This document shows positions 1-990 of a stretch of DNA of 9,740 nt, piece by piece. The notes below the pieces were generated by a model, which worked only from the letters and a program-made list of their open reading frames with translations, was not told the origin of the DNA and did not search any database. This stretch comes from Escherichia coli (GTDB lineage Bacteria > Pseudomonadota > Gammaproteobacteria > Enterobacterales > Enterobacteriaceae): assembly GCF_003334765.1 (NCBI RefSeq), contig NZ_QOWT01000059.1. The stretch is one strand, 5' to 3'. Each line of letters begins with the position of its first letter. Within the stretch, counting starts at the first letter, position 1. Position numbers and translations under genes: made by a program.

Positions 1-77
1 AAATGTTCGTCTCATTCAAAAAACCTCCGCAACCCCATGTTTTCACATAACTGTTGCGTTGACCAATTGAATCTACA
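1..77 (-). mobile_element. IS30 left end: terminal inverted repeat plus the first 5 codons of the transposase; element continues beyond the window start
   Basis: Reverse complement of 51..77 reads TGTAGATTCAATTGGTCAACGCAACAG, which I recognise as the IS30 terminal inverted repeat. Reverse complement of 1..15 is ATGAGACGAACATTT (MRRTF), the N-terminus of IS30 transposase as recalled. From memory only, no search run. Confidence 0.72.
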
Positions 78-990
78 ACCGCGCTCTTGATGTCAGACTC
101 CCTGAACAGTTCTCGATAATCAGGAAACTCAGAGCGCATTATCCTGTGGTCACACTCTGCCATGTGTTCGGGGTTCATCGCAGCAGCTACAGATACTGGA
201 AAAACCGTCCTGAAAAACCAGACGGCAGACGGGCTGTATTACGCAGCCAGGTACTTGAACTGCATGGCATCAGCCACGGCTCTGCCGGAGCAAGAAGCAT
301 CGCCACAATGGCAACCCGGAGAGGCTACCAGATGGGGCACTGGCTTGCTGGCAGACTCATGAAAGAGCTGGGGCTGGTCAGTTGCCAGCAGCCGACTCAC
401 CGGTATAAGCGTGGCGGTCATGAGCACGTTGCTATCCCGAATCATCTTGAGCGACAGTTCGCCGTAACGGAACCAAATCAGGTGTGGTGCGGTGATGTGA
501 CCTATATCTGGACGGGTAAGCGCTGGGCGTACCTCGCCGTTGTTCTCGACCTGTTCGCAAGAAAACCAGTGGGCTGGGCCATGTCGTTCTCGCCGGACAG
601 CAGGCTTACCATGAAAGCACTGGAAATGGCATGGGAAACCCGTGGTAAGCCCGTCGGGGTGATGTTCCAGGCGATCAAGGCAGTCATTATACGAGCAGGC
701 AGTTCCGGCAGTTACTGTGGCGATACCGGATCAGGCAGAGTATGAGTCGGCGTGGAAACTGCTGGGATAACAGCCCAATGGAGCGCTTCTTCAGGAGTCT
801 GAAGAACGAATGGGTGCCAGCGACGGGCTATGTAAGCTTCAGCGATGCAGCTCACGCAATAACGGACTATATCGTTGGATATTACAGCGCACTAAGACCG
901 CACGAATATAATGGTGGGTTACCACCAAACGAATCAGAAAACCGATACTGGAAAAACTCTAACGCGGAGGCCAGTTTTAGTTGACCACAA
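78..990 (+). mobile_element. IS911-like (IS3 family) element, 3' portion only; 5' part displaced by the IS30 insertion; right boundary approximate
   Basis: Contains an IS3-family OrfB transposase reading frame (see pseudogene 80..984). The stop at 982..984 is followed by GTTGACCAC, which resembles the IS911 terminal repeat as I recall it, but the expected terminal TTCA is not present, so the end may be slightly truncated or my recollection of the terminus is imprecise. Confidence 0.75.
80..984 (+). pseudogene. IS911 OrfB-type transposase (InsO-like), N-terminally truncated by IS30 and frameshifted
   Basis: ORF 146..745 (frame 2) encodes ...[62 protein letters not shown]. Homology then continues in frame 1 from 673 as [47 protein letters not shown]...NAEASFS to the stop at 982..984. 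The frame switch lies within 668..672, in the conserved HSDQG region of IS3-family DDE transposases. The frame-2 reading also extends upstream of the ATG at 146 to about position 80 (...[13 protein letters not shown]). Confidence 0.85.

Follow-up and report, generated by a model that had tools for sequence, protein, structure and literature searches.

A copy of IS911 beside the Escherichia coli fec operon split by IS30 in its orfA/orfB overlap

Introduction

The insertion sequence IS30 produces 2-bp target duplications and prefers hot-spot targets, and one IS911 copy in Escherichia coli K-12 is interrupted by IS30A (PMC9333248). The curated annotation of K-12 places IS911B, IS30D, an IS600 fragment and IS911B-1 next to one another, beside yjhV and fecE, at the locus homologous to the one described here. 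The sequence analysed in this study, hereafter the window, is a 9740-nt stretch of the E. coli ferric-citrate region whose left edge carries the end of an IS30 joined to IS911-type sequence. The initial annotation interpreted this junction as an IS911 split by IS30, and comparison with other genomes bears this out. Almost certainly, an IS911 beside the fec operon was split by an ordinary IS30 insertion that duplicated AC; the IS911 carries further decay.

The nested insertion is correct but already known and widespread, and it is ordinary because it is carried by over a thousand genomes and annotated in K-12. Of 5426 complete E. coli genomes, 1217 carry the IS30/IS911 junction, counted as a coverage of at least 80% of a 901-nt probe that has the IS30-IRL/IS911 boundary at its centre; some of the matches are on plasmids.

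The window and its genomic setting

Many complete genomes, among them Nissle 1917 and ATCC 11775, match positions 1-1400 of the window at 100% identity, and strains such as BS74R-D do so over the entire 9740 nt. The window ends 77 nt into IS30, and the IS911 5' half with the left copy of the duplication was read in other assemblies identical to the window. The leftward extension was read in Nissle (locus L001), in which the window position equals the L001 position minus 9000. The features of the window are as follows.

1-77, minus strand: IS30 left (IRL) end, IS30 nt 1-77, 77/77 identical to K-12 IS30D and to the Nissle IS30
15-1, minus strand: first 5 codons of the IS30 transposase (MRRTF), start codon at 15-13
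52-77, minus strand: IS30 left inverted repeat, 26 bp, TGTAGATTCAATTGGTCAACGCAACA, matching the right inverted repeat at 23/26
78-79: right copy of the 2-bp target duplication AC; the left copy is at L001 7855-7856, outside the window
78-119, plus strand: 3' end of orfA by translation, last 13 codons and TAA stop at 117-119
80-669, plus strand: orfB from codon 6 to a 1-nt deletion, by match to NF033516; the same frame then stops at 743-745
670-984, plus strand: remainder of orfB in the shifted frame with TGA stop at 982-984, by translation and match to NF033516 positions 305-368
957-992, plus strand: degenerate right inverted repeat and terminus of IS911, ...GGAGGCCAGTTTTAGTTGACCACAACA versus canonical ...GGTGGCCAGTTTTTGTTGACCACTTCA, by alignment with the IS911 of strain FCI48
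1882-9427, minus strand: fecE, D, C, B, A, R and I
9719-9740: start of IS1F (∼9719), at the right edge of the window

The fec operon is bracketed by insertion sequences, with IS911::IS30 on the left and IS1F on the right. Some otherwise identical genomes carry a group II intron (ltrA) or IS100 inside the window-equivalent region. In window-identical genomes, the PGAP labels at the left end are, in order, 'IS30-like element IS30 family transposase' and 'IS3 family transposase, frameshifted, missing N-terminus'. PGAP also places a partial 'hypothetical protein' pseudo-CDS at window 12-92 on the minus strand, across the IS30/IS911 junction, which is almost certainly an annotation artefact.

On the plus strand, an open frame (995-1324) extends from the right terminus of IS911 and closes with a stop at 1322-1324. 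Its counterpart in K-12 is the pseudogene yjhV, and PGAP annotates 1067-1324 as a hypothetical protein. NCBIfam and Pfam scans of the ORF at 995-1321 returned no significant family. The frame appears to be what is left of the C-terminal part of a gene that IS911 truncated.

The IS30 end and the complete IS30 copy

Window positions 1-77 are the last 77 nt of the curated K-12 IS30D (77/77; L002 8604-8680, L002 being the K-12 locus) and also match the 1221-bp IS30 of Nissle 1917 (L001 7857-9077). The perfect alignment, on the minus strand, confirms the IS30 terminus that had been placed at 77. The reverse complement reads TGTAGATTCAATTGGTCAACGCAACAG...ATGAGACGAACATTT, or with a longer start TGTAGATTCAATTGGTCAACGCAACAGTTATGTG...ATGAGACGAACATTT, and contains in order the IRL (window 77-52), the transposase start codon and the first 5 codons. 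In K-12 IS30C, which serves as a comparison, the CDS begins at element nt 63.

The other 1144 bp of IS30 lie to the left of the window. The Nissle IS30 is exactly 1221 bp long, is bounded by 26-bp imperfect inverted repeats starting TGTAGA (23/26 matched), and encodes an intact transposase of 383 aa (single DDE; NF033563, E 1.9e-82), of which the window holds only codons 1-5.

Insertion of IS30 into the orfA/orfB overlap of IS911

In Nissle, the missing 343-bp 5' part of IS911 lies directly left of IS30 and carries orfA codons 1-86, ending in ...GAAATATTAAAAAAGGCTAC. This arrangement recurs left of position 1 in BS74R-D, whose sequence matches the full 9740 nt of the window exactly. The displaced 5' half predicted to lie beyond IS30 is thus found in both strains. 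The predicted 2-bp target duplication is present as well: the flanks read GGCTAC/IS30/ACCGCG, with AC on both sides of IS30, and rejoin to the canonical GGCTACCGCG of an uninterrupted IS911. Target duplications of 2 bp also occur at five other IS30 sites.

The insertion lies after IS911 nt 335, 5 nt past the A AAA AAG heptamer, at orfA codon 86/87 and approximately orfB codon 5/6. The interruption itself therefore stands as first described, whereas its exact place is the orfA/orfB overlap and not the inside of orfB proper. The two reading frames overlap in the -1 frame with the A AAA AAG heptamer, and the sequence across the healed junction reads ..TTAAAAAAGGCTACCGCG..

In the favoured mechanism, the element next to the fec operon is a 1250-bp IS911 type of the IS3 family that ends on the right at 992. 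A 1221-bp IS30 entered this element by ordinary transposition, in antiparallel orientation, and staggered cuts 2 bp apart duplicated AC (IS911 nt 334-335). The remainder of orfB was thereby detached from the A AAA AAG heptamer, from orfA codons 1-86 and from the promoter, and therefore no OrfAB transposase would be possible. Judged from sequence, this IS911 has presumably lost its function. The choice of site may reflect the hot-spot preference of IS30, which the A-run and GC of the frameshift window resemble.

The stimulatory three-way junction of IS911 reportedly begins just downstream of the insertion site (Polard 1991; Rettberg 1999). A perfect 7-nt complement is formed by GCGCTCT (81-87) and AGAGCGC (131-137), which reportedly has a role in frameshift stimulation. 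In a search for a frameshift-stimulating structure, folding of the 110 nt downstream of the slippery site gave an energy no better than shuffled sequences (z -0.32) and so lends the structure no independent support.

Anatomy and decay of the IS911 copy

The IS911-type sequence occupies window 78-992 on the plus strand, directly after IS30, and corresponds to IS911 nt 334-1250. The IS3 family transposase profile NF033516 (NCBIfam) matches the plus strand at 80-676 (E 1.2e-54, profile positions 88-277) and at 742-981 (E 2.5e-20, profile positions 305-368). With the part beyond IS30 (profile positions 1-81), three IS3 fragments tile the profile. The match from 80 onwards agrees with the initial annotation, in which orfB-homologous coding sequence begins at 78-80. 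That annotation also held that neither an IS911 5' end nor orfA intervenes; the 5' end is indeed absent, but the last 13 orfA codons are present at 78-119, where they continue codons 1-86 from the far side of IS30. This remnant is kept because orfA and orfB overlap.

The terminus of IS911 is at 992 (...ccacaaCA), rather than at 990 as originally annotated, based on the alignment with the FCI48 element and on the K-12 annotation, which closes IS911B-1 at the equivalent base. The left end of the element (TGAAGTGG) falls outside the window, at L001 7514 in Nissle. Removal of IS30 in silico gives a reconstructed element of ∼1258 bp versus the expected ∼1250 bp, because of an 8-nt duplication at the IS911 left tip. 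This tandem duplication of the Nissle-type tip (TGAAGTGGTGAAGTGG, L001 7514-7529) is present in neither K-12 copy nor in intact IS911.

Several changes have accumulated in this IS911. In the alignment, canonical ttccaCAgcg has become ttcca-Ggcg at 669/670; this 1-nt deletion shifts the orfB frame just before the SDQG motif and is also found in K-12 IS911B. An intact DDE (rve) transposase domain is absent from OrfB, whose frame is broken at 669/670. The copy is thus a pseudogene, which bears on activity and not on ancestry. The right inverted repeat has four base changes, the tip included (CCACAACA versus CCACTTCA). A 3-bp duplication was sought at the flanks of the IS911 copy and none is present there (left ..GCTC, right GACT..); therefore, the arrival of IS911 or its later history was not a simple insertion, and one flank was likely rearranged later.

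The description of the locus as decayed is consequently apt for IS911, which is split, carries a deletion and a mutated right repeat and lacks the 3-bp duplication, but not for IS30, which is intact in Nissle. The IS911 copy is presumably an inert fossil; the IS30 can be intact.

Alternative explanations for the junction and the name

Identification of the IS3-family part as IS911 relies on nucleotide identity, for which the isoform yardstick is at least 95% to the reference element (ISfinder). Window 78-992 (915 nt) is 94.0% identical to the intact 1250-bp PGAP-named IS911 of strain FCI48. Across PGAP-named IS911 copies the values are only 94-96% (94.0-95.8%), while ISEc52-named elements reach ∼94.5%, all near the usual 95% isoform boundary. 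The element could accordingly be another member of the group, such as ISEc52, with IS911 a misnomer. This is unlikely, as the best-matching named elements are IS911 (95.8%) and the K-12 curators call the homologous copy IS911B, the 3' 520 nt of which are 99.8% identical to the window. The orfA/orfB layout, the A6G site and the TGAAGTGG...CA ends are likewise those of IS911.

A secondary event could also have made the 77/78 junction: IS30 may have mediated a deletion or inversion next to itself, or two IS30 copies may have undergone homologous recombination. The IS911 halves would then not belong to one target. Such junctions do form. In K-12, the nearby order is IS911-5', IS30D, an IS600-5' fragment and IS911 from nt ∼455, so that at this same locus the IS30 left end abuts the IS600 fragment and not IS911 nt 334. 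In strain CT282, a single IS30 lies between the 3' parts of two different IS3-family elements. The window-type flanks, by contrast, fit exactly into canonical IS911 with a perfect 2-bp duplication, and the halves rejoined in silico show no substitutions over 1287 nt compared with uninterrupted copies at the same locus. A secondary origin of the window junction is thus highly improbable, and a direct insertion of IS30 into IS911 is the preferred reading. Chance matches to IS30 and IS911 are not an issue because the matches are exact and to long, specific sequences.

Uninterrupted alleles and a probable excision scar

The fec-linked IS911 exists without IS30 at the same locus in other strains. 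At least 79 genomes have the Nissle-type left flank intact together with an IS911 that nothing interrupts, and the Nissle-type locus in either state, with or without IS30, is present in 417 genomes. In EHEC (O26/O103/O111), the fec-linked IS911 has no IS30 and carries three extra bases at the site (GGCTAC-A-ACCGCG), which add one codon. The allele of O26:H11 11368 (L003 6355-6357), aligned with the joined halves over 1287 nt including short flanks, shows no substitutions and differs only in the three extra bases. The exact three-base-insert allele is found in 105 records. The same three bases occur on pO157 (L006 ∼3069-3071) in an apparently intact IS911-like element.

A near-precise excision of IS30 could account for these bases, by deletion between 4-nt direct repeats, CTAC, in the target and in the IS30 tip (..TCTACA). 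The three-base insert of the chromosomal allele is probably such an excision scar, and the same origin is proposed with less confidence for the insert on pO157. A rival origin for the three bases is short-patch gene conversion from a plasmid copy. The fec locus of strain 2313, which was inspected for gene conversion, has a scar-free sequence with four substitutions; three of the four match canonical IS911, and the sites between them do not. This sequence may be either ancestral or converted.

IS30 targets in IS3-family elements

IS30 insertion sites were compared empirically, site by site. IS30 is found at the homologous dinucleotide just past the slippery A-run in IS911 (in both orientations), IS600, ISEc31 and another IS3-family element. 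The junctions are at 77/78 in the window, at 4541/4542 and 5762/5763 in locus L004, at 1057/1058 and 2278/2279 in L009, at 2278/2279 in L008, at 58/59 and 1278/1279 in L014, and at 1278/1279 in L012. The targets other than IS911, with the duplicated pair in brackets where it is given, are as follows.

IS600: TTAAAAAAAGCA[AC]AGCG, in strain YZ22PE68 and at the K-12 IS30D/IS600 junction
ISEc31: homologous position
Another IS3-family element: ATATTAAAAAAAGCC[GT]GGCG, both orientations, two strains
ydbA of K-12 (non-IS target): TTAATAAAGGT[AC]TGTT
nfsA-rimK region (non-IS target): ATTAAAGAAAGCC[GC]CCAT
O157 site (non-IS target): ATATTAAAACAGACC[AC]

The empirical half-site is roughly ATTAAAAAAAGCC followed by the duplicated pair, and is common to the ydbA, nfsA-rimK and O157 sites. 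It equals the slippery A-run plus GC of the IS3-family frameshift windows, which plausibly explains why IS30 is frequently nested there. At the lambda LHS hot spot, GGC follows an A-run close to the position stated for it; its exact insertion base is not given, and the register is uncertain. A consensus for the IS30 hot spot is published and was reportedly derived in part from these K-12 sites.

In CT282, IS30 lies between inverted IS911-type and ISEc31 3' parts (L008 1058/1059 and 2278/2279). This arrangement implies inversion or recombination between IS30 copies in equivalent hot spots.

These sites and the uninterrupted alleles permit a joint reading, in which the frameshift window (ATATTAAAAAA[A/G]GC..) is a natural IS30 hot spot and the three-base insert is an IS30 excision scar. 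Taken together, the two parts are somewhat better than an even proposition. The hot-spot part holds that independent IS30 insertions in several IS3-family elements fall on the dinucleotide 3-5 nt beyond the A-run. If the joint reading is true, one insertion sequence repeatedly disables another at its regulatory site and sometimes leaves again. Its only new elements would be the connection with the frameshift signal and the excision scar.

Significance

The nested insertion sequences mark the edge of the horizontally acquired fec island and may serve as a strain or lineage marker. They also call for caution in annotation, as illustrated by the spurious 'hypothetical protein' of PGAP over the junction. 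The nested insertion itself matters little. For transposon specialists, the side findings offer modest leads, as they suggest why IS30 often sits in IS3-family elements and provide natural examples of putative excision scars.

Comparison with known systems

The closest described system is the IS911B/IS30D of K-12 (insO/insN fragments, insI3, KpLE2 element). It shares with the window the neighbourhood of the yjhV remnant, fecEDCBA-RI and IS1F, the orientation of IS30 and the IS911 5'/IS30 junction, in which ..GGCTAC is followed by TGTAGATTCAATCTG. The 1-nt orfB deletion and the degenerate right end of IS911 are also common to both. The K-12 locus differs in a 327-bp IS600 fragment between the IS30 left end and IS911, in the loss of IS911 nt 336-∼454, in a slippery run of A5 and not A6, and in its left flank, which is yjhE in K-12 and AbiJ-type genes in the window type.

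The K-12 IS911B 3' fragment, at L002 9008-9802, is a mosaic when set against window 198-992. Over the first ∼277 nt it shows 100% identity to canonical IS911 and 91% to the window; identity to the window is 99.8% in the last 520 nt. Such a pattern suggests that IS911 copies have recombined or undergone gene conversion. The 327-bp IS600 5' fragment (L002 8681-9007) abuts the IS30D left end with its frameshift site (TTAAAAAAAGCAAC). Either a second IS30 event at the hot spot of IS600 plus a deletion, or an IS30-mediated adjacent deletion, could have produced this arrangement.

The IS911A::IS30A of K-12, in the CP4-6 prophage, has the same target dinucleotide, the AC duplication and the GGCTAC/IS30/ACCGCG flanks. 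It differs from the window in its locus, in the truncation of the IS911 3' part after ∼430 bp and in the opposite orientation of IS30 relative to IS911, and therefore represents an independent event. On a ColV-type plasmid, by hbp/tsh (Otto et al. 1998), an IS911 orfA fragment likewise adjoins IS30, according to the ORF table of the paper (PMC2212542). That case differs from the window in being plasmid-borne.
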